A stretch of 32,000 nt of DNA from Polaromonas sp. Lineage in GTDB: Bacteria > Pseudomonadota > Gammaproteobacteria > Burkholderiales > Burkholderiaceae_C. The stretch lies in assembly GCF_029945895.1 (NCBI RefSeq), contig NZ_JAQSDL010000029.1, positions 28,260 to 60,259 of the forward strand. Reading direction: 5' to 3'. The notes under the pieces were generated by a model that saw nothing but the letters and a program-made list of their open reading frames with translations, was not told where the DNA came from and searched no databases. A program made the translations under genes and the position numbers. Position 1 is the stretch's first letter, and each line of letters opens with the position of its first letter. Shown here one piece after another: positions 14,769-32,000 of this stretch.

Positions 14769-14805
14769 AACAGCGTCTTCGTGCGCCTTCTGAGTGTCTG
14801 AAGGC

Positions 14806-17481
14806 ATGACCCAACCCAAAGCGAGATTTCGTTGGCCCCATTTCGCTGCGTCGTCCTCCCAGGCGGTAGTCGAGGGGGGCCCCCCTGACCTGACGACGGC
14901 CACGGTTGCGCGGCGGGCGATTGCGCCCTTGTCCATGCGTGATCGGATCGTGGCCATCGTTGCGCCGGCCGGCTATGGCAAGACGACATTGATGGGAGGA
15001 TGGTTTCGCGCTTGCAAAGACGCCGACCCCGTGTGGGTGGGGCTCGACGCTTCCTGGCGCGACCAGGTGTTCTTTGTGCGCTCTTTGTTGAATGCAGTCG
15101 GAGGTCCGTCGGAGCCTGTCGCGATGGGTGCCATCGACGCGACGGCGGCGGTCGAGAGCGGCTTGCTGGCGTTGTTGCAGGCCCTTGGCCAACGTCGTCG
15201 TCCCATGGTGCTGTTCTTCGACGATGTGCATGTGTTGCGTGGCAGCGAGAGCGCTCACACCCTGAGCCGTCTGTTGGTGGCGGCACCCGACTACTTGAGG
15301 TTCGTCGTTTGCGGCCGCGAAGGGATGGATTTCGATCTGGCCGTGCTGACCGCGCGCGGGCTGGTACGCTGGGTGACACAGCACGAGCTGAAGCTCGACG
15401 CGCAGGATGTGCGGGAACTGGTGCGGCGGCGCCGCCTGTCGGCCGGTGACGAAGAGGTTGAGCATATCGTCGGGATCACCGAGGGTTGGCCGGCATTGGT
15501 ACAGCTTGCCCTCGCCAGCGGCGAGGGCGTACAGGAGGCCGCCGGGGGCAGCAGTAACTTGCTAATGGACAGCTTCGTTTACGAGAGCTTCTTCAAGGGC
15601 CTCGCGCCGGCCCGACGGCAGGCGCTGTTCGTGATGGCCGCCATTGGCGACTTCACGCTGCCGCTGCTGGTCGCGCTCGATGCGCCCGAGGGGGCGGAGG
15701 CGATCGCCGAAGGCGAGCAACTGGGCATCGTGCAGCGTCGGGGACGCGTGGCTGGCGAGCCGTTCTACGCCTTGCATGCGCTGGTGGCGGAGCGCGCACT
15801 GACGCGATTGGCCGACATGGGGCTGAGGCCTGTGTTTGTGCGCATACTGCGAACGCGTTGTGCGCAATGGTGGCATGCCCGGGGCGAGGTCTACCGTGCG
15901 ATCCGCGTGGCCCTGGAAGGTGATGACGCAAGGCTGGCGTCGGCTTATCTGACCGGCTACGCGCGTCAACTGGTGCAGGGCGAGGGCCGGCACGAGACCT
16001 TCCTGGACCTGCTCGCGCAATTGGAATCACGCGGCGTGGAGCCAGACTGCGCGCTGATGTTGCAAGCGGTGTGGGCGCTGGTGTTTTTGCGCCGCTATGC
16101 CGAGGCGGCAGCGTGGCTGACGCGCATTGAGCGGGCTTGTGGCAAGGGACAATCAGCCGGCGTTCGCTTGATCCTGCATACGACCGTCCTTCAGCGCGGC
16201 GTGATCGCCGGCCTGCGTGATAACGAGGCCGATGCCGAGGTCTTTGTGCGCCGGTGGCTGGCAGGGCCACCCGATCCGGACCCATTCCACTATGGAGCCG
16301 CACAAACGGTGCTGGCCTATGCGCACAAATGCAATGGACGCTTCGCCGAGGCTGCCCAGTCCTTGCGCGAGGCGCAAGTGAAGTTCGAGGAGGCTCCTTC
16401 ACCTTACGGCCACATGTGGGTGCGGGTGATCTCGGCCGCCTCGCTGCTCAAGGCGGGGCGGCATCGTGATGCCCTGGCAGACAGCGCCTCGGCGCTGGCC
16501 GAAGAGCCAGCTTTCGCTCCCGGCGCCGCGGGCCTGGCGGCCATGCTGCGCGCGATCCGCGCGTTGCTGCTGTATGAACGCAACCAGTGCACTGACGCGA
16601 TGGTGGAAGTGGAAGCGGCACTGCCACTGCTGCCGCACCAGGGCATTGTCGATGCGATGGTCGCGGGCTACGTGGCGGCGTCACGTCTGCAGGCGGCGCG
16701 GGGCGACATATCCGGTGCGCTCGATGCGGCGGCGGAGGGCGAGCGCGTGGGACTGGCGCGCGGCTTCGTGCGCCTGCAGCTCACGATGGTGGCCGAACGT
16801 GCGCTGCTGCTGTTGCGCGCCGGCGACGTCGAGGCGGCGCGACAAATGGCCAACGATAATGGGTTGCTGCCGCAAGGACCGCAGACCAATCTGCACAGAG
16901 ACAAGGCCGAGCGCCTCTGGGCCCGCCTCGATCTCGCGCAGGGGCGGCCCGATCTCGCTCTGCAATGGGTCGATTCCGGCATCGCCAGGGCGCGACGCAG
17001 CCACCAGCAGCACAAGCTGGCCGAGTTGTTGATGCTGCGCTCACTGGCGTTGGTGCGAACAGGAGATGCCGAGGGTGGGCACGACGCGGTGATGGAAAGC
17101 CTTCGCATCGCGGCATCGAACGGCTACGTGCGCCTGTACCTTGACGAAGGCCCCGAGTTGGAGAGCCTTTTGCGCCGCGTGGCTGACAAGCCGCAGAGTC
17201 CCACGCCGGCGTTTTTATACGCGCGAACGCTGCTGCTTGCCGCGGGCGCTGCATCTGCACGTCAGGATGCGGCGCCCGCGGACCAGGAGCGACCAACCGA
17301 GCGCGAACTGCAGATCCTTCGCCTGCTGGCAGATGGCCTGTCCAATGGCGAAGTGGCGGGTCGGCTTGTGTTGACCGAGGGCACGGTGAAATGGCATCTT
17401 CACAACATCTACGCGAAGCTGGGCGTGAAAAATCGCACGGGTGCTTTGCGCGAAGCTCGCACTCGGGCCTGGCTAGTTTGA
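14806..17481 (+). CDS. Large ATP-binding LuxR-family regulator (MalT/AlkS-like, LAL class)
   Basis: Walker A GYGKTTL (14971-14988), long helical-repeat middle region, C-terminal LuxR HTH (ERELQILRLLADGLSNGEVAGRLVLTEGTVKWHLHNIYAKLGV). Confidence 0.88.
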   Translation: MTQPKARFRWPHFAASSSQAVVEGGPPDLTTATVARRAIAPLSMRDRIVAIVAPAGYGKTTLMGGWFRACKDADPVWVGLDASWRDQVFFVRSLLNAVGGPSEPVAMGAIDATAAVESGLLALLQALGQRRRPMVLFFDDVHVLRGSESAHTLSRLLVAAPDYLRFVVCGREGMDFDLAVLTARGLVRWVTQHELKLDAQDVRELVRRRRLSAGDEEVEHIVGITEGWPALVQLALASGEGVQEAAGGSSNLLMDSFVYESFFKGLAPARRQALFVMAAIGDFTLPLLVALDAPEGAEAIAEGEQLGIVQRRGRVAGEPFYALHALVAERALTRLADMGLRPVFVRILRTRCAQWWHARGEVYRAIRVALEGDDARLASAYLTGYARQLVQGEGRHETFLDLLAQLESRGVEPDCALMLQAVWALVFLRRYAEAAAWLTRIERACGKGQSAGVRLILHTTVLQRGVIAGLRDNEADAEVFVRRWLAGPPDPDPFHYGAAQTVLAYAHKCNGRFAEAAQSLREAQVKFEEAPSPYGHMWVRVISAASLLKAGRHRDALADSASALAEEPAFAPGAAGLAAMLRAIRALLLYERNQCTDAMVEVEAALPLLPHQGIVDAMVAGYVAASRLQAARGDISGALDAAAEGERVGLARGFVRLQLTMVAERALLLLRAGDVEAARQMANDNGLLPQGPQTNLHRDKAERLWARLDLAQGRPDLALQWVDSGIARARRSHQQHKLAELLMLRSLALVRTGDAEGGHDAVMESLRIAASNGYVRLYLDEGPELESLLRRVADKPQSPTPAFLYARTLLLAAGAASARQDAAPADQERPTERELQILRLLADGLSNGEVAGRLVLTEGTVKWHLHNIYAKLGVKNRTGALREARTRAWLV

Positions 17482-22616: not shown

Positions 22617-22630
22617 CAGGAGACATGACA

Positions 22631-23440
22631 ATGAAAACAGTTTCAATTCAAGGTGCCGGGGGCATGCGGGTAGCCGGCGGCGAGGGAAAATCCTCCCGGG
22701 AGAAAATAGGTGCTCCGTGGGCCAAATTCTTTTTGGCGCTGCTTGCGTTCGCGGTGCTCTATACCGGCTATCGCATCTACTCCGAGGCGTCGGCGTTCAC
22801 ATACGGGCTCGACTATTTCAGCCACGAGTTCGATGTTTACTGGATGCGTCTGCTGTACGGACAGTTGCTGCTGATTGGCGCGCTGGGAACCGGGGCTCTG
22901 GTGTATCTATGGCGTACCCGTGAGCGGGATTTTTCCCGGATCGGGCCACGAGAGGAGGTGCGGCGCCTGTTCGTGCTGATGGCGCTCATTTTGCTGTTCG
23001 CCATCATGTTTTATGTGACCGGTTCGATCTACACGGAGGCCGATGCAGCCTGGCACCAGGTGACGATCCGGGATACTGATTTCACCCCCACCCACATTGG
23101 TCTGTTTTATTTCTGCGTGCCCTTGCTGGTGTTTTGGGGCTTCATCTCGTTCGCCTACGCTCACACGCGCATCCCGCTCTTTGGCAATCGCATTTCGCTG
23201 CCGTTCGCGATCATCGTCGCCGGCGCTTTCATGATCATGCCCAATGTGGGATTCAACGAGTGGGGTCACACTTTCTTCTATGCAGAGGAGTTGTTCGCCG
23301 CGCCGATTCACTATGGCTTTGTGTTGCTGGGCTGGTCTACGTTTGCGGCTGGTGGATTGCTCCTGCAGATACTGGGTCGCGTGGCCGAGCTGACGAAGCA
23401 GTCGGTGTCGCCGCAAGCCGAGCTTCAAGCGGCTCACTGA
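22631..23440 (+). CDS. pmoC: Copper membrane monooxygenase subunit C (PmoC/AmoC family)
   Basis: EADAAWHQVTIRDTDFTPTH and NEWGHTFFYAEELFAAPIHYGF reproduce PmoC metal-ligand spacing (D-x3-H-x12-H and N-x3-H-x13-H). Multi-TM protein. ATG 22631 is 7 nt after AGGAGA; ATG 22625 is an alternative. Confidence 0.92.
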   Translation: MKTVSIQGAGGMRVAGGEGKSSREKIGAPWAKFFLALLAFAVLYTGYRIYSEASAFTYGLDYFSHEFDVYWMRLLYGQLLLIGALGTGALVYLWRTRERDFSRIGPREEVRRLFVLMALILLFAIMFYVTGSIYTEADAAWHQVTIRDTDFTPTHIGLFYFCVPLLVFWGFISFAYAHTRIPLFGNRISLPFAIIVAGAFMIMPNVGFNEWGHTFFYAEELFAAPIHYGFVLLGWSTFAAGGLLLQILGRVAELTKQSVSPQAELQAAH

Positions 23441-23526: not shown

Positions 23527-24279
23527 ATGTCCGTTTTGACTCCGGCTGAGGCCGCCTTTAGCCCGCAGGAAGCGGCCCGCGTTGATGCCCAGGTTGACTG
23601 GGTGGTCATTCCGCTCTTTGTGGTGCTTCTGGGGTCCGTATTCGCCTTCCAGTTTGCCTTGCTGGTGGGGGACTGGGATTACTGGATCGATTGGCGGGAC
23701 CGCCGTTATTGGCCGCTGGTCACGCCCTTGGTGCTGGTTATTCTGCCCGGCGTATTTGGATATGCCTTTTGGCATTTGCTGCGCATACCTCTGGGTGCGA
23801 CGCTGAGCATTATCGGGTTGACGCTGACGGGCTGGTTGAGCCGGTACTTGAACTTTCATGAGTTCGCGGGTTTTCCGATGAACATGGTGCTGCCGTCGAC
23901 TTTCATTGGCGTGGGTCTACTGATCGATTGCACCTTGCTGCTTACGCGCAGCTGGTTTTTCACGGGGATTTTTGCTGGCTTTCTTTCGGGGCTGCTTCTG
24001 TACCCAATGAACTGGCCACTGCTGGCTCCGTTCATGGTGCCGGTCGAAATGCACGGCACGCTGATGACGGTGGCGGACGTGATGGGTTTTGAGTACATCC
24101 GCACTGCCATGCCCGAATATGTGCGCATCATCGAGCAGAGTACTTTGAGGACATTCGGCGATGCAGTCACACCGCTGACGGCGGTTTTTGCTGGCTTCCT
24201 GACCATATTGAGCCTCTGGTTCTGGGCCTGGGTTGGCTCACTCGGTGTCAAGGCCGTGTGGCTGCGAAAAGTTGTTTAA
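23527..24279 (+). CDS. pmoA: Copper membrane monooxygenase subunit A (PmoA/AmoA family)
   Basis: Hallmark strings GDWDYWIDWRDRRYWP, PMNMVLPSTFIG, YIRTAMPEYVRIIEQSTLRTFGD. GGAGA RBS. Confidence 0.93.
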   Translation: MSVLTPAEAAFSPQEAARVDAQVDWVVIPLFVVLLGSVFAFQFALLVGDWDYWIDWRDRRYWPLVTPLVLVILPGVFGYAFWHLLRIPLGATLSIIGLTLTGWLSRYLNFHEFAGFPMNMVLPSTFIGVGLLIDCTLLLTRSWFFTGIFAGFLSGLLLYPMNWPLLAPFMVPVEMHGTLMTVADVMGFEYIRTAMPEYVRIIEQSTLRTFGDAVTPLTAVFAGFLTILSLWFWAWVGSLGVKAVWLRKVV

Positions 24280-24289
24280 GGAAGAGGTC

Positions 24290-25531
24290 ATGAATTTCAT
24301 TGCAAAATTGTTCGCAGTCATTCAAGGCCTGATCGTCGTCCTGGTCACGTTTTCGGCAACGCCGACGTATGCCCATGGTGAAAAGGCTCAGCAACCCGCT
24401 TTGCGCATGCGCACCGTGCATTGGTTTGACGTGGATTTGTCGACGCGCAAGCTCGATGTCAACCAGATTCTGGTCGTCAAGGGAACTTTTGTTCCTTCCC
24501 TGTCCTGGCCGGAGCATGTCGCGTCCATCGAGGACACCGCCTATCTCAATGTGGGCGTACCCGGGCCTTCTTTTGTGCGCCTGGACAGCCGCGTCAACGG
24601 TGTGCCCACCATACGCAGTAGTTCGTATAAGCGCGGTGAGCAGTACAACTTCGAGATCACGCTGAAGGCCCGCACACCCGGCCGCTATCACCTGCATCCC
24701 ATCATCAACGTCCAGGATGCCGGGCCGATGATTGGGCCCGGCATCTGGGTCGAGGTCGGGGGCGACCCGGCGGCATTTGACAACAGCATCAAAACCTTGT
24801 TCGGCCAAACCCTTGATTTGGAAACGCACGGCTTTGCCAATGCGGCTTCCTGGTCAGCGGTGTGGGTTGTGCTTGGTTTGGTCTGGTTTGGCTATTGGCT
24901 GACCAAGGTGCCTTTGATCTTGCCGAGGTTCCGGCGTGCCAGCGCGCTGGGTGAGAACGCCGACGACATGATCACCACGCGCGACCGTCAGGCGGCACTG
25001 GTTATCCTGGTGGCTACGCTGATGCTTATCGCTGGCGGGTTTTTCTATGCCACCGAGCGCTGGCCGGTCACGACGCCGCTACAGACCGGCAAGATCAAGA
25101 CGCCGCCCCTGAAGATGGCGCCTTCGCCGGTGTTGGTCACGATGGATGATGCACGCTACCGCATCCCGGGCCGGAGCTTCCGTATCGAGCTCACGGTAAC
25201 CAACAGCGGGAAGAGTCCCGTGAGCGTTGGTGAGTTTGCCTCAGGCGGCCTGCGCTTTATCAATTCCGCGGTGCTGAAGGTCACACCAAAAGACCAGGAC
25301 GATCTGGTCGCGACAGACGCGTTGCGCGTGGAGGGCGGCTCGATCAATCCAGGAGAAACGAAGAAGATCGTGGTCTATGCGGACGATGCGATGTGGGAGA
25401 CGCAGCGCATGACGACGATGATCTCCTCCCCGGATGCGGTGGTGGCCGGCATGCTGTTCTTCTTCGATGCGCAGGGCCGTCGCTATCCAGTAGAGATCAG
25501 CGGACCGATGATCCCTTTGTTCGGGGGGTAA
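24290..25531 (+). CDS. pmoB: Copper membrane monooxygenase subunit B (PmoB/AmoB family)
   Basis: Signal peptide ending TYA|HGEKAQQPALRMRTVHWFD (N-terminal His after cleavage), GRYHLHPIINV HxH motif, two central TM helices, C-terminal cupredoxin-like domain. Confidence 0.92.
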   Translation: MNFIAKLFAVIQGLIVVLVTFSATPTYAHGEKAQQPALRMRTVHWFDVDLSTRKLDVNQILVVKGTFVPSLSWPEHVASIEDTAYLNVGVPGPSFVRLDSRVNGVPTIRSSSYKRGEQYNFEITLKARTPGRYHLHPIINVQDAGPMIGPGIWVEVGGDPAAFDNSIKTLFGQTLDLETHGFANAASWSAVWVVLGLVWFGYWLTKVPLILPRFRRASALGENADDMITTRDRQAALVILVATLMLIAGGFFYATERWPVTTPLQTGKIKTPPLKMAPSPVLVTMDDARYRIPGRSFRIELTVTNSGKSPVSVGEFASGGLRFINSAVLKVTPKDQDDLVATDALRVEGGSINPGETKKIVVYADDAMWETQRMTTMISSPDAVVAGMLFFFDAQGRRYPVEISGPMIPLFGG

Positions 25532-26142
25532 TGGAGATGCGACTGATCCGAACGTTGAGTTCCGCGCTGCTGGCCGTGGCTGCGGTATCGGCATGGGCCC
25601 ATGGCGGGGTCGGCATTGAAGACGACAAGTGCATCCTGCGCATCGGCAGCGACCGGGCCCATTTCGCCGGCTACCAGCCCGAGCACCGTGCCAGTCAGGA
25701 GTTCTGCGAGGACATCCCCGAAGTCGGACGGGCAGTGATCGTGATTGACTTCATCCAGCCCGCGCTGCGCGAACGCGTGGTCGAGTTCCGCATCCTGCGT
25801 GACGCGGACGGGCTGGGTGCCAAGGCGCGCTACGAGGATCTTGGTGACACGGACCAAATCGCGCAGCGGACGATGGTGGCGCTGCCGGCCAAGGTTTATC
25901 CGCGCGGCACGGTCACCCTGGACCACAAGTTCAGCGAGCCCGGCTGGTACATCGGCCTGCTCAGCGCGACCGACCCGGCCAGCGGGAAGACGGAGACCTC
26001 GGTCTTTCCGTTCCGCGTCGGCGTGCGCAACTATTGGAAATACCTGCCATTGCCCTTGTTCTTTATCGGCATGGCCTGGCTCTTGTACCGGCTTACCAGA
26101 CAGCGGCGAAAACCCCCGATCACCGACGTACCTCAAAAGTAG
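25531..26142 (+). CDS. Exported, C-terminally membrane-anchored protein coupled to pmoB (candidate PmoD/AmoD-like accessory protein)
   Basis: ATG overlaps the pmoB stop (TAATG). Signal peptide ...AVSAWA|HGG. About 150-aa periplasmic domain with C34/H44/H52/C59. TM helix YLPLPLFFIGMAWLLY followed by RQRRK. Family assignment not verified. Confidence 0.7.
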   Translation: MEMRLIRTLSSALLAVAAVSAWAHGGVGIEDDKCILRIGSDRAHFAGYQPEHRASQEFCEDIPEVGRAVIVIDFIQPALRERVVEFRILRDADGLGAKARYEDLGDTDQIAQRTMVALPAKVYPRGTVTLDHKFSEPGWYIGLLSATDPASGKTETSVFPFRVGVRNYWKYLPLPLFFIGMAWLLYRLTRQRRKPPITDVPQK

Positions 26143-26165
26143 ACAGCATGAAAAAAGGAGACAAG

Positions 26166-28331
26166 ATGAAAATTTGGATGAACATGGCGGGTAACGCGCG
26201 TCAAGAAAAAACCGCCAACCGACCTGCAATGGCCCTGACATTGGCGGTGGTTTCGCTGCTGGTGATGGCCGCGCCGCCCGTCATGGCCGAGGAGGCCAAG
26301 GGCTCGAAGGCGCACATTGCGGCCGTGACCAGGAAAGTCGACGGCGCCTTCATCCGTGCCAATGAGGCGCGAACGAACGACTGGCCCAGCCACGGCCTGG
26401 ACTATGCCGAGACCCGCTTCAGCAAGCTCCAGCAGATCCATACCGCCAACGTCAAGGATCTCGGCTTGGTCTGGTCCTACAACCTCGAGTCGACGCGCGG
26501 CGTCGAGGCCACGCCGCTGGTGGTGGACGGCGTCATGTATGTCAGCGCCTCCTGGAGCATCGTCCATGCCATTGACGTGCGCAGCGGCAAGAAGATCTGG
26601 ACCTTCGATCCCAAGGTGCCGCGCGAGGCCGCTTACAAGGGCTGCTGTGACGTGGTCAACCGCGGCGTGGCGCTGTATCAGGGCAAGGTCTTCGTCGCCT
26701 CCTACGACGGCCGGCTGATCGCGCTCGATGCGGCCACCGGCAACAAGGTCTGGGAAAAAGACACCATCATCGACCGCAAGTTCAGCTACACGATCACCGG
26801 GGCGCCACGCGTGTTCAAGGGCAAGGTGATCATCGGCAACGGCGGCGCCGAGTACGGCGTGCGCGGCTACATCACGGCCTATGATGCCGCCACCGGCGAC
26901 CAGAAATGGCGCTGGTTCACGGTACCCGGCGACCCGAGCAAACCGTTCGAGGACGAGTCCATGGCCAAGGCCGCCAAGACCTGGGACCCCGCGGGCAAGT
27001 ACTGGGAAGCCGGCGGTGGTGGCACCGCCTGGGACACGCTGACCTTCGATCCCAAACTGAACCTGATGTACGTGGGCGTCGGCAACGGTTCACCCTGGGC
27101 GGCAGCCAAGCGCAGCCCCGCGGGCGGCGATAACCTGTACCTGGGGTCCATCGTCGCGCTCAACCCCGACACCGGCAAGTACGTCTGGCACTACCAGGAA
27201 ACACCCGGCGACAACTGGGACTACACCTCGACCCAGCCGATGATCCTGGCCGACCTGAAGATAGCGGGCAAGCCACGCAAGGTGATCCTGCATGCGCCGA
27301 AGAACGGTTTCTTCTTCGTGATCGACCGCACCAACGGCAAGTTCATCTCGGCGAAGAACTTCGTCGACGTGAACTGGGCCAGCGGCTACGACGCGACGGG
27401 TCGCCCCATCGAGACTGCCGATGCGCGTCCCACGGATCGACCGTACGATGCCATTCCAGGCCCCTACGGCGCGCACAACTGGCACTCCATGTCGTTCAAT
27501 CCACGGACCGGGCTGGTCTACTTGCCTGCGCAAAACATACCCGTCAACATGATGGATGACAAGAACTGGAGCTTCAACTCCAACAAGCCAGGTCAGCCAG
27601 GCTCCGGTACCGGTTGGAATACCGGCAATTACATCAATGCAGTCCCACCAAAAAGCAAGCCGTTTGGCCGACTGATTGCCTGGGATCCGGTACAGCAAAA
27701 AGAAGCATGGCGCCAGGAACAGGTCTCACCGTGGAATGGTGGCACGCTGACCACGGCCGGTAACCTCGTGTTTCAGGGCACGGCGGACGGGCGTTTCATC
27801 GCCTACAACGCCCAAAATGGCGAGAAACTCTGGGAGTCGCCCACGGGGACCGGCGTGGTGGCTGCGCCTATCACCTATCTGGTGGATGGCAAGCAGTACG
27901 TGTCGATTGCCGTGGGATGGGGCGGCAGTTACGGTCAGGATAAGCGGGCCACCGAGCGGCAAGGTCCGGGCACGGTCTACACCTTTGCCGTTGGCGGCAA
28001 AGCGCCCATGCCGGACTTCGTCGCTTACCGGATGGGCGAACTGGTGGCAGGGGTGAAATACGACCCGGCTCACTACGAGGCCGGCACCTTGCTGTATGTC
28101 AGCAATTGCGTTCTCTGCCATGGTGTTCCCGGCGTGGACCGTGGCGGCAACATCCCCAACCTCGGTTACATGAACGCGGCCTTCATCGAAAACCTCGACA
28201 AGTTCATCTTCAAAGGTCCCGCCATGAGCCGGGGCATGCCTGACTTCACGGGCAAGCTGAGCGTGGACGATGTGGAGAAGATCAAGGCCTTCATCCAGGG
28301 AACGGCAGACGCGATACGTCCCAAGAAATGA
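26166..28331 (+). CDS. Quinohemoprotein PQQ-dependent alcohol dehydrogenase (type II ADH with C-terminal cytochrome c)
   Basis: AAGGAG RBS 5 nt before ATG 26166. Signal peptide, vicinal disulfide GCCDVVNRG, propeller W-motifs, WDYT active-site segment, heme motif CVLCH (28107-28121). Starts at most 23 nt after the preceding stop. Confidence 0.9.
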   Translation: MKIWMNMAGNARQEKTANRPAMALTLAVVSLLVMAAPPVMAEEAKGSKAHIAAVTRKVDGAFIRANEARTNDWPSHGLDYAETRFSKLQQIHTANVKDLGLVWSYNLESTRGVEATPLVVDGVMYVSASWSIVHAIDVRSGKKIWTFDPKVPREAAYKGCCDVVNRGVALYQGKVFVASYDGRLIALDAATGNKVWEKDTIIDRKFSYTITGAPRVFKGKVIIGNGGAEYGVRGYITAYDAATGDQKWRWFTVPGDPSKPFEDESMAKAAKTWDPAGKYWEAGGGGTAWDTLTFDPKLNLMYVGVGNGSPWAAAKRSPAGGDNLYLGSIVALNPDTGKYVWHYQETPGDNWDYTSTQPMILADLKIAGKPRKVILHAPKNGFFFVIDRTNGKFISAKNFVDVNWASGYDATGRPIETADARPTDRPYDAIPGPYGAHNWHSMSFNPRTGLVYLPAQNIPVNMMDDKNWSFNSNKPGQPGSGTGWNTGNYINAVPPKSKPFGRLIAWDPVQQKEAWRQEQVSPWNGGTLTTAGNLVFQGTADGRFIAYNAQNGEKLWESPTGTGVVAAPITYLVDGKQYVSIAVGWGGSYGQDKRATERQGPGTVYTFAVGGKAPMPDFVAYRMGELVAGVKYDPAHYEAGTLLYVSNCVLCHGVPGVDRGGNIPNLGYMNAAFIENLDKFIFKGPAMSRGMPDFTGKLSVDDVEKIKAFIQGTADAIRPKK

Positions 28332-28477: not shown

Positions 28478-28951
28478 ATGCAATCGAAAAAAGTTTCCGC
28501 TGTCTGTATCGCGGTCCTGATGGGTGCGCTGGCGGGACCCGTCGCCTTGGCGACCGAGCACGCGCACGCCGCATCCAAGAGCGGCGCGGCGAAGGACATG
28601 AAGGTACTGCCGCCGCTGCGCATCGTGTCGCCGCTTGCCGGGGCGCAGGTCGGGCCCAACATTGAGGTCGAGTTCGAGACCGATGCGGAGCTGGCGAACA
28701 TGACGATGAGCGCCAAGTCCATTGGCGTTCATCTGCATGTCGGTATCGACGGTACGTCTCTGATGCCGATGATGGCGGACTTGGTCCGCGTGGGCAAGAA
28801 TCGTTACCGCTACGCCTTTGACCTGCCCGCAGCCCCTGGGCCGCGCGTCATTAGCGTGTACTGGTCCGATGCATCCCACAAGACCATCGAATTTTCGGTA
28901 CAGAAGGTGAGTGTGGTGGTCGTTTCGAATCAGGGTAAGGTCAAACCTTGA
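28478..28951 (+). CDS. Exported His/Met-rich protein (DUF4399-like; candidate periplasmic copper binder)
   Basis: Signal peptide ...PVALA|TEHAHAAS. LRIVSPLAGAQVGPNIEVEF...IGVHLHVGIDGTSLMPMM resembles the DUF4399 pattern from memory. Function unproven. Confidence 0.65.
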   Translation: MQSKKVSAVCIAVLMGALAGPVALATEHAHAASKSGAAKDMKVLPPLRIVSPLAGAQVGPNIEVEFETDAELANMTMSAKSIGVHLHVGIDGTSLMPMMADLVRVGKNRYRYAFDLPAAPGPRVISVYWSDASHKTIEFSVQKVSVVVVSNQGKVKP

Positions 28952-28998
28952 ACGTACAGTCAAGTCGTCCTTGATGCCAATGAATAGAAGTGCAAGCA

Positions 28999-29015
28999 GC
29001 TATTGAAGTAATAGC
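28999..29015. promoter_or_regulatory. Inverted repeat GCTATT-N5-AATAGC upstream of the DUF2147/copCD genes
   Basis: Read from the sequence, about 50 bp upstream of ATG 29068 in an AT-richer spacer. Confidence 0.15.
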
Positions 29016-29067
29016 ATCATCGGCCCATGAAGTCGTTGCTCGCCTACCCACAACGAAGGAAAGTCTC

Positions 29068-29523
29068 ATGACAATCGGAAAGACATTGAAACACGTACTC
29101 GCCATCGCCTCCTTTGCCTGGGCAGCCGGTCCTGCTTTTGCGCAGGACACGCCCGTCGGGCTCTGGAAGACGATTGACGACGACGGCAAGACGGTGAAAA
29201 CCTTGATTCGCATCAGCGAATCGGCTGGCGTGCTCAGTGGCGTGATCGAGAAACTCCTCGATCCCAAGGCGGCGACCGTCTGCACGAAATGCACCGACGA
29301 CCGCAAGGACAAGCCGGTGGTCGGGATGACGATTATTCGCGGCATCAAACACAATACCGCTGACGCTGCGCTGTGGGACGGCGGCGAGGTGCTCGATCCG
29401 GAGAATGGGTCGACCTACCGGCTGCGTCTGCGGCCCGCCGACGGGGGCAAGAAACTCGAGGTTCGAGGTTTCATCGGCGTGCCGATGATAGGGCGCTCGC
29501 AAACCTGGGTGCGCGCCGAGTGA
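29068..29523 (+). CDS. DUF2147 domain exported protein
   Basis: Signal peptide ...GPAFA|QDTPVGLWKTIDDDGK, CTKC pair, KDKPVVGM, W-GG-VLDPENGSTY, LEVRGF...GRSQTWVR. This is the typical DUF2147 layout. Confidence 0.8.
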   Translation: MTIGKTLKHVLAIASFAWAAGPAFAQDTPVGLWKTIDDDGKTVKTLIRISESAGVLSGVIEKLLDPKAATVCTKCTDDRKDKPVVGMTIIRGIKHNTADAALWDGGEVLDPENGSTYRLRLRPADGGKKLEVRGFIGVPMIGRSQTWVRAE

Positions 29524-29537
29524 ACGCCCGGCGCAAG

Positions 29538-29906
29538 ATGGTTTCGTGGCTCGTCGCGCTGCTGGCCATGGCCGCCACTGGCACGGCGCTGGCGCATGCC
29601 GCGCTGGTCAAGTCCGAACCGGCACGGCGGGCGACGCTGTCCAAACCGCCGCCGCAGGTCAGGCTGTGGTTCAACGAGCGGCTGGAGCCCGAGTACGCGA
29701 CGATCAGCGTGATCAGGGAAGGTGCCGGCCCGGTCACGACCCAGAAGGCCCGGGTTGACAAGGACGACCCCAAACTGCTGGCGCTGGAATTGCCCATGCT
29801 CAGCCCGGGTACCTATACCGTGAAATACCGGGTGCTCTCGGTCGATGGCCATACGGTCGATTACGGTTATACCTTCACCGTGAAGGCCGAGGGCGCCGGG
29901 AAGTAA
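29538..29906 (+). CDS. copC: CopC periplasmic copper-binding protein, Cu(II)-site-only type
   Basis: Signal peptide ...GTALA|HAALVKSEP (mature N-terminal His), D-x-H (SVDGHTV) near the C-terminus, no Met-rich Cu(I) loop. Confidence 0.88.
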   Translation: MVSWLVALLAMAATGTALAHAALVKSEPARRATLSKPPPQVRLWFNERLEPEYATISVIREGAGPVTTQKARVDKDDPKLLALELPMLSPGTYTVKYRVLSVDGHTVDYGYTFTVKAEGAGK

Positions 29907-32000
29907 ATGGAATTCCTCGGCACGGCGCTGCGCTGGCTGCAATTGACCAGCGGCCTGGTGCTGTTGGGCAGCTTTGCCCTGCTGCTGCTCGCGGGTCCTG
30001 GCCGAAGCCCGGATGCCGCGCGCTGGCGTGGCGCGGTCTTTGCCGCCGCGCCATGGCTGGTGGCACTGCTGCTGGCCACGGCGGCAGGTCTGTTGATGTT
30101 GCAGGCGGCTTCGGTCAGCGGCCGCGGCGAGGCGGCCTTTGAGTGGTCCGAATGGGTCAGGCTGCTGGAGCGAACGCGCTACGGCGCGGTCTGGCAGGTG
30201 CGGCAGGCGGCAGCGCTGGTTCTGCTGCTGTTGTTGCTGAGCCGAGGGCCTCTGAGCGCGCGGTTCGGCGAGCGCGTCGTCTGTGTGGCGCTGCTCACCC
30301 TGGCGCTGGGAATCAACGCGGCCTCGGTATTTACCGGGCACGGCGCTGCCACAGAACCGCTTTGGCTCGCAGGTGCCGGCCATGCGGTGCATTTGCTGGC
30401 GGCGGGCGCTTGGGCCGGAGGGTTGCCGGCGCTGGCCTACGGACTTCACCTGGCGGCAAGAGGCCGGGATCCGCCGTTCCGGCAGATGTTCCTCGGCGTG
30501 TTGCGCCGCTTCTCTGTGCTTGCGACGGTTTGCGTTGCTCTCATCGCTGCATCCGGCACCCTCATCGCGTACCTGCAGTTCGGCGCGCCGATCCGCTGGC
30601 CCGCACGGACAGACGACATCTTCGGCGGTCTGATGACGGTGCTCGAACGCAGCCTGGCCCCGCTGCTCAGTACATCGTTCGGTCTGCAGGTGTTGGCCAA
30701 AATGGTTCTGCTGGTGCCGGTGCTGCTTGTTGCAGCGCGGGTTCGCTGGGTCTGGATGCCGCGTATGGGCAAGGTGGCATTTGAGCAGGGTCTTGCGTGG
30801 CAAGGCGCGGCCGGTCTGGTCCGGGTGGAACTGGGCGTTGTGCTGCTGATCCTGCTCTTCGCAGCCGGTCTGACAGGTACGCTGCCCGCGGCCCATGCGC
30901 AGATGGTGTGGCCGCTGCCGTTTCGTCTGTCGCTCGCGGCCACCTGGGACAAACCGGGGGGGGTGAACACGGTCGTGGGTGCGTCGTTGCTGGCTATGGG
31001 CGGACTGGCTTGGCTGGTGCATGCCCTTGTGTCAGGGCCCCGCGCCGACGCGGCGCAGGGCGGGCGCCGGATCCGTTTGGGTGCTGCCGTGCTGATGACC
31101 CTCTCGGGGCTGGTCATCGTTCTATACGCGCTCTCGGTGGACGCCTATCCCGACACCTATCGGCGCACGGATGTCAGTTACAACGCGGTGTCGGTCACGC
31201 GCGGGGCGGCGCTGTATTCCCAGCACTGCGTGTCCTGTCACGGTCCGGGTGGCAAGGGGGACGGTCCGCTGGCCACCCGCTTGCCCACCAGGCCCGCCGA
31301 CCTCACCGAGCCGCATACCGCGTTGCACACGGCGGGCGATCTCTTTTGGTGGCTCACCCACGGCAAGCCGAACACCGCCATGCCCGGCTTTGCGCAGGAA
31401 ATGACCGAGGAGGAACGCTGGGACATGGTGAACTTCCTGCGCGCCTTCTCCGCCGGTTTTCAGGCCCGCATCCTGACACCGCAGGTGGTGCCCGGGCGGC
31501 CCTGGCTCGGTCCGCCCGATTTCGATTTTGTGACCCGGTCGGGACTGGCCGCGGCGCTCAAGGCGTACAGGGAGCGCAAGTCCGTGCTGCTGGTCTTCTA
31601 CTCGCAGCCCTTCTCGGCGCAACGCCTGGCCGAACTGGCGCGTGTCTATCCGCGCCTGAAATCCAGCGGCGCCGAGGTGATCGCCATTGCGTTGCCAGGC
31701 ACCCCGCCCTTGCAATCGCAGCCGTTCCCCGTTGTCACCGATGGGGCGCAGGAGGCGGCGACCGCCTACCTGCTGTTGCGGCGCACCTTGAGCGACCCCG
31801 GCAAGACCATCCTGGGGGAAGCTCCGTCTCACATGGAATTCCTGCTCGACCGGTTCGGCTATGTGCGAGCGCGCTGGCTGCCGCAGGACGAGGAGGGCGC
31901 CGGTGAAGGTTGGCGCGACACGCAGTTTCTGCTCGACCAAATCGAACGCATCCACCGCGAGCCGCGCATCCTGCCGCCGCCCGATGATCATGTGCATTGA
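29907..32000 (+). CDS. copD: CopD-family membrane protein fused to a cytochrome c domain and a Cys-less peroxiredoxin/thioredoxin-like domain
   Basis: ATG immediately follows the copC TAA. N-terminal multi-TM CopD region, CVSCH heme motif (31227-31241) with AMPGF Met ligand, C-terminal AhpC/TSA-like pattern KSVLLVFYSQPFSAQR...GAEVIAIAL with no Cys. Stop at 31998-32000. Confidence 0.85.
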   Translation: MEFLGTALRWLQLTSGLVLLGSFALLLLAGPGRSPDAARWRGAVFAAAPWLVALLLATAAGLLMLQAASVSGRGEAAFEWSEWVRLLERTRYGAVWQVRQAAALVLLLLLLSRGPLSARFGERVVCVALLTLALGINAASVFTGHGAATEPLWLAGAGHAVHLLAAGAWAGGLPALAYGLHLAARGRDPPFRQMFLGVLRRFSVLATVCVALIAASGTLIAYLQFGAPIRWPARTDDIFGGLMTVLERSLAPLLSTSFGLQVLAKMVLLVPVLLVAARVRWVWMPRMGKVAFEQGLAWQGAAGLVRVELGVVLLILLFAAGLTGTLPAAHAQMVWPLPFRLSLAATWDKPGGVNTVVGASLLAMGGLAWLVHALVSGPRADAAQGGRRIRLGAAVLMTLSGLVIVLYALSVDAYPDTYRRTDVSYNAVSVTRGAALYSQHCVSCHGPGGKGDGPLATRLPTRPADLTEPHTALHTAGDLFWWLTHGKPNTAMPGFAQEMTEEERWDMVNFLRAFSAGFQARILTPQVVPGRPWLGPPDFDFVTRSGLAAALKAYRERKSVLLVFYSQPFSAQRLAELARVYPRLKSSGAEVIAIALPGTPPLQSQPFPVVTDGAQEAATAYLLLRRTLSDPGKTILGEAPSHMEFLLDRFGYVRARWLPQDEEGAGEGWRDTQFLLDQIERIHREPRILPPPDDHVH

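Follow-up and report, generated by a model that had tools for sequence, protein, structure and literature searches.

A PmoD/AmoD-family gene directly after pmoB in a copper membrane monooxygenase operon of Polaromonas sp.

PmoD proteins and the fourth gene of the Polaromonas operon

PmoD proteins consist of a periplasmic domain, marked by two invariant cysteines, between a signal peptide and a C-terminal helix and, in the survey of Fisher et al. 2018 (PMC6189053), they are confined to genomes carrying a copper membrane monooxygenase (CuMMO), with a tighter link than that of other copper proteins. The structure was solved for PmoD of Methylocystis sp. Rockwell (Met49242_1452; 6CPD), which is encoded in the operon directly after pmoB and forms a CuA centre; in ammonia-oxidizing bacteria the place after amoB belongs to the family members AmoD (orf5, Cx8MHxnC) and AmoE (orf4, Cx7MxHxnC). 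The gene considered here is an open reading frame (ORF) of 203 aa at 25531–26142 (+ strand) in a stretch of 32,000 nt (the window) of the Polaromonas sp. contig NZ_JAQSDL010000029.1, and all coordinates are positions of this stretch. The gene follows pmoB, and its product is a clear homolog of the PmoD/AmoD family as judged from sequence and predicted fold. The likely explanation is that it represents the pmoD/amoD member of a CuMMO operon of neither methane nor ammonia type, encoding a tethered periplasmic copper protein without CuA that probably serves copper supply or maintenance for the monooxygenase.

Scans of the ORF against Pfam and NCBIfam matched no model, the lone match being due to chance (11 bits). 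A phmmer search against all PDB sequences gave a single match, Methylocystis PmoD 6CPD, with E 1.3e-19 over residues 33–164, and BLASTP against the full-length Methylocystis protein gave 35% identity over 155 residues (E 6e-27). The product has 184 homologs at E<=1e-3, and the reverse search from Methylocystis PmoD recovers proteins of the HGGVS...AHFTGYQP...QEFCED type resembling the window product. The AlphaFold2 model of the product alone, a prediction that an earlier sequence-only reading of this stretch had proposed, was built from an alignment of 77 sequences (A1, Methylocystis-type PmoDs included) and has a mean predicted local distance difference test (pLDDT) score of 91, with strands at residues 35–38, 41–49, 53–58, 67–74, 83–90, 114–117, 127–133, 138–147 and 154–163. 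In a Foldseek comparison of this model with the PDB the top match is 6CPD_A (E 1.7e-13, target TM-score 0.87, root-mean-square deviation 2.5 A), so that the model has the fold of 6CPD, and the sequence and predicted-fold matches together place the ORF product in the PmoD/AmoD family. In particular, Cys34, His44 and Cys59, which the sequence-only reading had singled out as Cys34-x9-His44 and Cys59, align residue for residue with PmoD Cys41, His51 and Cys65.

The same reading had suggested either a divergent PmoD or a new accessory subunit. The former assignment stands as to the family, given the matches above, although the protein is not very divergent; the latter is contradicted by the ortholog of Solimonas aquatica DSM 25927 (Ga0070002_104146, locus L027 of the survey described below), which is 54% identical to the window protein and appears in Supplementary Data 2 of Fisher et al. 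2018 (PMC6189053) as 'other', CuMMO operon, H1, Cx9HxnC, with the neighbourhood 'cabdcd', that is, already as an in-operon PmoD. An unrelated new family merely mimicking the PmoD architecture, which could be argued from the absence of a Pfam or NCBIfam model and from the label 'hypothetical protein' that the source annotation gives to the window gene and to its homologs, is refuted by the highly significant sequence and fold matches and by the presence of the Solimonas ortholog in the published dataset, and its probability is negligible. In fact, the family, its architecture, its motif classes, H1 and the orthologs of non-methanotrophs are all already published. For want of a model in Pfam or NCBIfam, the genes of the family are labelled as hypothetical proteins even in operons that have them as a conserved fourth member, and the naming pmoD/xmoD would correct the annotation in Polaromonas, Rhodoferax, Nevskiales and many marine hydrocarbon degraders.

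The survey of orthologs, in which one genome per species was scanned, yielded 80 loci encoding a relative of the window PmoD. They belong to Polaromonas, Rhodoferax and Hydrogenophaga, to many Nevskiales (Solimonas, Nevskia, Panacagrimonas, Sinimarinibacterium, Polycyclovorans), to Porticoccaceae, Macondimonas and Thiotrichaceae and to some Alphaproteobacteria, and none of the 80 bears a name known from canonical methanotrophs or nitrifiers. In 79 of these species-level loci the gene immediately before the ortholog, in the same orientation, is pmoB, itself usually preceded by pmoA and pmoC, and this bears out the co-occurrence with CuMMO genes in other genomes on which the sequence-only reading had made its interpretation depend. 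Its further statement that PmoD/AmoD-type proteins are found only beside CuMMO genes agrees with these 79 loci and fails for the remaining one (L080), where the gene is away from pmoB. Cys34 and Cys59 are invariant in all 80 orthologs and across A1.

Putative copper ligands and the predicted N-terminal histidine

The putative metal-binding segment Cys34-x9-His44-x14-Cys59 (25630–25707, + strand; codons at 25630–25632, 25660–25662 and 25705–25707, respectively) reads C34-ILRIGSDRA-H44...C59, with a histidine at C1+10 and no methionine at C1+8 or C1+9, and belongs to the subclass Cx9HxnC. The CuA subclass, Cx7MxHxnC, combines Met at C1+8 with His at C1+10, whereas the window protein has His44 together with Arg42 at C1+8. 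With Methylocystis PmoD it shares the predicted fold, the succession of signal peptide, periplasmic domain and C-terminal helix and the place directly after pmoB; however, Met49, Met42 and Met44 of that protein correspond to Arg42, Ile35 and Arg37, so that the window motif is Cx9H and not Cx7MxH. The loop at about 92–101 is also longer by 8 residues in the window protein. What sets AmoD and AmoE apart from the window PmoD is the Met position within the motif. Among the 80 orthologs, the counterpart of PmoD Met49, position 42, is Arg in 46 and Lys in 26, and Met is outside the three commonest residues.

These data bear on the proposal that the window protein could form a homodimeric mixed-valent CuA centre as in Methylocystis PmoD and serve the monooxygenase as its electron-transfer partner. 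In favour of it, the CuA ligands Cys41 and His51 have Cys34 and His44 as their counterparts, the gene is in-operon like those of the CuA-forming PmoDs, and the gene for an alcohol dehydrogenase containing haem c begins 5 nt downstream; against it, Arg42 takes the place of the third ligand, Met49, with mostly Arg or Lys across the orthologs, and the adjacency of the alcohol dehydrogenase is limited to 7 of the 80 loci. As reported by Fisher et al. 2018 (PMC6189053), the Met49Ala variant of PmoD abolishes CuA, and the tested homologs of the classes Cx9HxnC, Cx8MxnC and CxnC bind copper and do not form CuA. A CuA site in the window PmoD was rejected on the basis of the Arg/Lys at the Met position and of the published Met49Ala data, and we regard this explanation as improbable.

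With the CuA methionine replaced by Arg42, mononuclear type-2 copper is expected in place of the CuA dimer. The expectation would carry over by analogy from MettrDRAFT_0370 of Methylosinus trichosporium OB3b, alike in motif class (Cx9HxnC) and in the presence of H1, for which 1.40 +/- 0.18 Cu per protein, two type-2 electron paramagnetic resonance (EPR) species and no CuA are given by Fisher et al. 2018 (PMC6189053); according to the same source, Cx9HxnC homologs are usually near copC and off pmo operons, whereas the window gene is an in-operon copy. Given its conserved histidines and cysteines and the stoichiometries of these homologs, the window PmoD would be expected to bind copper. His52, which the sequence-only reading had listed together with Cys34, His44 and Cys59, was rejected as a metal ligand due to its clade-specific occurrence, with R, K and Q most frequent at this position in the orthologs. 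The absence of the CuA methionine from in-operon PmoDs of CuMMOs of neither methane nor ammonia type means that CuA chemistry cannot be the general reason for the presence of pmoD in CuMMO operons.

The product has a predicted Sec signal peptide (residues 1–23, M1–A23; 25531–25599, + strand) with the n-region MEMRLIR, including Arg4 and Arg7, a hydrophobic core and the end AWA. The predicted cleavage AWA↓HGG, which coincides with the best site of the sequence-only reading, would make His24 (codon 25600–25602, + strand; 'H1' in Fisher et al.) the first residue of the mature protein. All 80 loci follow the consensus [signal peptide]-[A/G/S/T]↓H-G-G-[V/M]-x-x-[E/D/K/A/Q]-x-D-x-C, with His at +1 in every case; in the 79 orthologs analysed, position -1 is A in 51, G in 24, S in 3 and T in 1, and position -3 is A in 51, V in 10, L in 5, S in 5, G in 4, T in 2 and C in 2. 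The residues upstream of His24 are variable and hydrophobic and those from His24 onward are highly conserved, a boundary that is expected if signal peptidase I cuts directly before His24. The residues invariant in 80/80 are H24, G25, G26, D32, C34, H44, F45, G47, Y48, P50, Q56–D61 (QEFCED) and P63, His44 being the only further invariant histidine besides His24.

The occurrence of H1 extends to the wider family. A phmmer scan of 1.84 billion cluster representatives with Methylocystis PmoD as the query gave 446 family members at E<=1e-3 and, among the 123 best classifiable representatives, 91 carry the pattern [A/G/S/T]-H-[G/A/S], in most cases at a distance of exactly 10 residues from C1; these 91 take in most of the Cx8MH (AmoD-like) and Cx9H types. 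H1 is found in 67 of the 78 representatives with H2 vs 24 of the 45 without it, in a sample uncorrected for phylogeny. The in-operon Methylocystis PmoD of known structure is among the exceptions, since its mature N-terminus is Glu-Gly-Gly in contrast to the predicted His-Gly-Gly of the window protein. Supplementary Data 2 of Fisher et al. 2018 (PMC6189053) has the columns H1, C1, M, H2 and C2 and gives H1 as present in NE0941, NE0942 and Noc_2500, of the AmoD/AmoE proteins of ammonia oxidizers, in MCA2130 and in others, and the main-text passages of that paper examined contain no discussion of H1 as a ligand.

A free N-terminal His1 may build a histidine-brace-like or His/Cys hybrid Cu site as the conserved functional centre of the PmoD/AmoD proteins, a proposal that we put forward tentatively and hold to be possible more than probable. 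As in the histidine-brace sites of PmoB (CuB), CopC and the lytic polysaccharide monooxygenases (LPMO AA10), the N-terminal histidine of the window PmoD would be generated by cleavage of the signal peptide; in contrast, classic braces have no cysteines and the window site has them. LPMO AA10 and CopC also follow 6CPD in the Foldseek results, weakly (E ~1e-3, TM-scores 0.3–0.6) and with a similarity that may be generic to beta-sandwiches. According to Fisher et al. 2018 (PMC6189053), all constructs of that work had an additional vector-derived Ser-Met at the N-terminus, and the crystallized construct (6CPD) begins three residues before Cys41 of a PmoD that has no H1; a site needing the free amino group of His1 would thus not have formed in those proteins. 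No paper combining the terms 'PmoD' and 'histidine brace' was found in the open literature searched. If the proposal were true, the CuA centre would be a specialization of one subclass, and PmoB, PmoD and CopC of the cluster would constitute a relay of N-terminal-His copper sites. In any case the invariant His24, as the predicted first residue of the mature product, is a concrete candidate ligand in a protein whose role has been debated since 2018.

Three exported proteins of the cluster have a predicted His as mature residue 1, namely PmoB (TYA↓HGEK), PmoD (AWA↓HGGV) and CopC (ALA↓HAAL).

Probable coupling, membrane anchoring and proposed role of the product

The start codon of the gene (ATG, 25531–25533) and the TAA stop of pmoB (25529–25531) overlap by one base (TAATG), as the sequence-only reading had noticed in proposing coupled translation, and the ORF is closed by TAG at 26140–26142. 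A second in-frame ATG is located two codons downstream, at 25537, and the RefSeq model of 201 aa is consistent with it, so that two starts are possible, of which the first gives the one-base overlap; the signal peptide is unaffected by the choice. A start codon overlapping the pmoB stop (-1 or -4 nt) recurs in 33 of the 80 loci (including L007, taken from the frame translation) and is the sole candidate start in several of them, which supports translational coupling to pmoB. In the loci without overlap the gap ranges from tens to ~130 nt. The GC content at third codon positions is 0.82 for this ORF, typical of the adjoining genes.

The signal peptide is followed by a predicted periplasmic beta-sandwich domain, cupredoxin-like in the AlphaFold model and by its match to 6CPD (residues 24–171; 25600–26043, + strand), and by a predicted C-terminal transmembrane helix with a basic cytoplasmic tail (26044–26139, + strand). 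The single helix and basic tail of the sequence-only reading are supported by hydropathy (helix at about 172–188, top 15-residue Kyte-Doolittle window 1.8), by the AlphaFold helix 173–189 and by the charge of the tail RLTRQRRKPPITDVPQK, with 6 K/R and 1 D/E.

The helix and the coupling could also indicate a structural subunit that docks on PmoC by its C-terminal helix and stabilizes the complex or its arrays, copper binding being incidental. Coupled translation points to synthesis alongside PmoB, and an unassigned helix on structures of the particulate methane monooxygenase and ammonia monooxygenase was once proposed as PmoD; however, a review reports no strong evidence for PmoD there and the helix is assigned to small separate ORFs. 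Moreover, the invariant columns of A1 are periplasmic and none lies in the helix, and the residues invariant in the 80 orthologs are likewise periplasmic, so that a purely structural role appears very unlikely.

In the favoured explanation, a copper protein serving the monooxygenase, pmoD would share a transcript with pmoCAB and have its translation tied to that of pmoB, and its product would be exported via the Sec pathway and cut by signal peptidase I before His24. The cupredoxin-like domain would then stay on the periplasmic side, anchored in the inner membrane by the C-terminal helix while the basic tail reaches into the cytoplasm, and could bind one or two mononuclear, type-2 copper ions at the cluster of ligands near the N-terminus. 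The most likely role would be the acquisition, insertion or maintenance of copper for the adjoining monooxygenase, probably together with CopC and the CopD-cytochrome c protein. In Methylosinus trichosporium OB3b, disruption of the in-operon pmoD leads to a copper-dependent growth defect, and proteomics detected the soluble domains and C-terminal helices of PmoD proteins and not their signal peptides, as described in Fisher et al. 2018 (PMC6189053).

The neighbourhood of the PmoD homologs is consistently about copper across the loci. The next gene encodes a multicopper oxidase in 42 loci (among L012, L016, L023, L026 and L029–L080), the next genes encode CopC and then a CopD-cytochrome c fusion in 23 loci, and an alcohol dehydrogenase follows in 7 of the 80 loci, of the Polaromonas type. 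In marine and gammaproteobacterial loci, the gene found most often after pmoD is that of the multicopper oxidase, a protein of ~560 aa that begins with a membrane or signal segment.

A general function in periplasmic copper homeostasis with CopC/CopD or multicopper oxidases, the adjacency to CuMMO genes reflecting only a high copper demand, would agree with the presence of one or the other of these partners next to the gene in 65 of the 80 loci, and with the many methanotroph PmoD paralogs described by Fisher et al. 2018 (PMC6189053) that are off pmo operons and near copC, PCuAC or multicopper oxidase genes. The copy in L080, placed beside SURF1 and without pmoB within 2.4 kb upstream, points in the same direction. 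In contrast, the position directly after pmoB in 79 loci, in many of which the stop of pmoB overlaps the start of the next gene, and the restriction of PmoD to CuMMO genomes in the dataset of Fisher et al. 2018 (PMC6189053) argue against it, and general homeostasis is considered a rather unlikely explanation, the least so of the alternatives weighed here.

Some points weigh against a copper-supplying PmoD tied to its operon. The copper binding, the cleavage site and the topology of the window PmoD are all features that we infer, and the AlphaFold model is weakest precisely at residues 24–26 (pLDDT <50), so that it does not resolve the geometry of His24. The roles of PmoD are still at the stage of proposals in Fisher et al. 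(PMC6189053) and in the review, including electron transfer, copper loading and structural stabilization. L080 (1–3981) is the sole locus without pmoB upstream, and its PmoD homolog is downstream of SURF1 and of a gene resembling cytochrome oxidase subunit III by eye, and upstream of a multicopper oxidase; the family would therefore not be strictly tied to CuMMO operons.

The L080 contig is short, and its Enterobacteriaceae bin label looks wrong.

The Polaromonas locus and its neighbouring genes

The operon begins with homologs of pmoC/xmoC (CuMMO subunit C; 22625–23440, + strand; Pfam AmoC PF04896, E 3.5e-73; start codon provisional) and pmoA/xmoA (subunit A; 23527–24279, + strand; Pfam AMO PF02461, E 6e-76), followed by that of pmoB/xmoB (24290–25531, + strand; Pfam Monooxygenase_B PF04744, E 1.3e-123), with a predicted mature N-terminus TYA↓H29-GEK. 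A single pmoD is present, no second PmoD copy being found in the window, whereas ammonia oxidizers of the beta-proteobacteria have two tandem copies. Such Rhodoferax/Polaromonas clusters were reportedly written xmoCAB(D) by Rochman et al. 2020. A literature search for 'xmoCABD' gave no match.

The pmoD gene is followed after 5 nt by a gene for a pyrroloquinoline quinone (PQQ)-dependent quinohemoprotein alcohol dehydrogenase (26148–28331, + strand; TIGR03075, E 5.6e-205, with a cytochrome c domain). A simple terminator scan of the + strand between 22000 and 29500 found no terminator-like site downstream of 24419, hence none separating pmoB, pmoD and the alcohol dehydrogenase gene, although the number of sites was not above that of shuffled sequence and the evidence is only weak; the alcohol-oxidizing step may thus be co-transcribed with the monooxygenase. 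Loci with the alcohol dehydrogenase after pmoD are limited to Polaromonas, Rhodoferax, Hydrogenophaga and two other Burkholderiales-labelled loci.

CopC and the CopD-cytochrome c fusion are encoded in the window after the alcohol dehydrogenase and two small genes. In particular, copC (29538–29906, + strand; Pfam CopC PF04234, E 7.3e-24, domain from residue 20) has the predicted mature N-terminus ALA↓H20-AALV, and the large CopD-cytochrome c fusion (29907–32000, + strand; Pfam CopD PF05425 and Cytochrom_C) runs past the end of the window. In Solimonas copC and copD come right after pmoD, whereas here the PQQ alcohol dehydrogenase is inserted and copC/copD lie ~3.4 kb later.

The divergent genes upstream of the pmoC-like gene encode an aldehyde dehydrogenase and a GMC oxidoreductase, and farther upstream there are acyl-CoA synthetases, acyl-CoA dehydrogenases, a thiolase and a MalT/LuxR-type regulator. 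The surrounding genes fit a route from alkane to alcohol, aldehyde and acid and then to beta-oxidation, as read from the gene context, and the operon probably encodes a CuMMO of neither methane nor ammonia type, a short-chain-alkane monooxygenase; judged from these neighbouring genes, the host, in contrast to Methylocystis, would oxidize neither methane nor ammonia. The window PmoA and PmoC score beneath the NCBIfam equivalog cut-offs for ammonia/methane monooxygenase. The window PmoB is above the cut-off of the equivalog 'bacterial ammonia monooxygenase AmoB' (527 vs 336 bits), and with PmoA and PmoC below theirs automated annotation may mislabel a probable alkane monooxygenase as an ammonia monooxygenase.

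At the protein level the window is 100% identical to the contig NZ_NBZV01000008.1 of Polaromonas sp. AER18D-145, published as Polaromonas eurypsychrophila and isolated at a uranium tailings facility (PMC9022503); the CuMMO operon is unmentioned in that genome announcement (PMC9022503). Since the strain is cultured, genetics should be possible.

The MalT/LuxR-type regulator (14794–17481, + strand; AAA_16, TPR_MalT, GerE), located among the acyl-CoA synthetase genes upstream of the cluster, could regulate the alkane pathway. The two small genes before copC encode a conserved exported protein of ~157 aa (28478–28951, + strand), with the predicted mature N-terminus ALA↓TEHAHAAS... and no Pfam or PDB match, and a DUF2147 protein (28990–29523, + strand; start codon uncertain). 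Homologs of the former come after copC and copD-cytochrome c in 16 loci of the Nevskiales type and after the alcohol dehydrogenase in 3 of the Polaromonas type, and this exported protein may be an uncharacterized member of the copper gene set.

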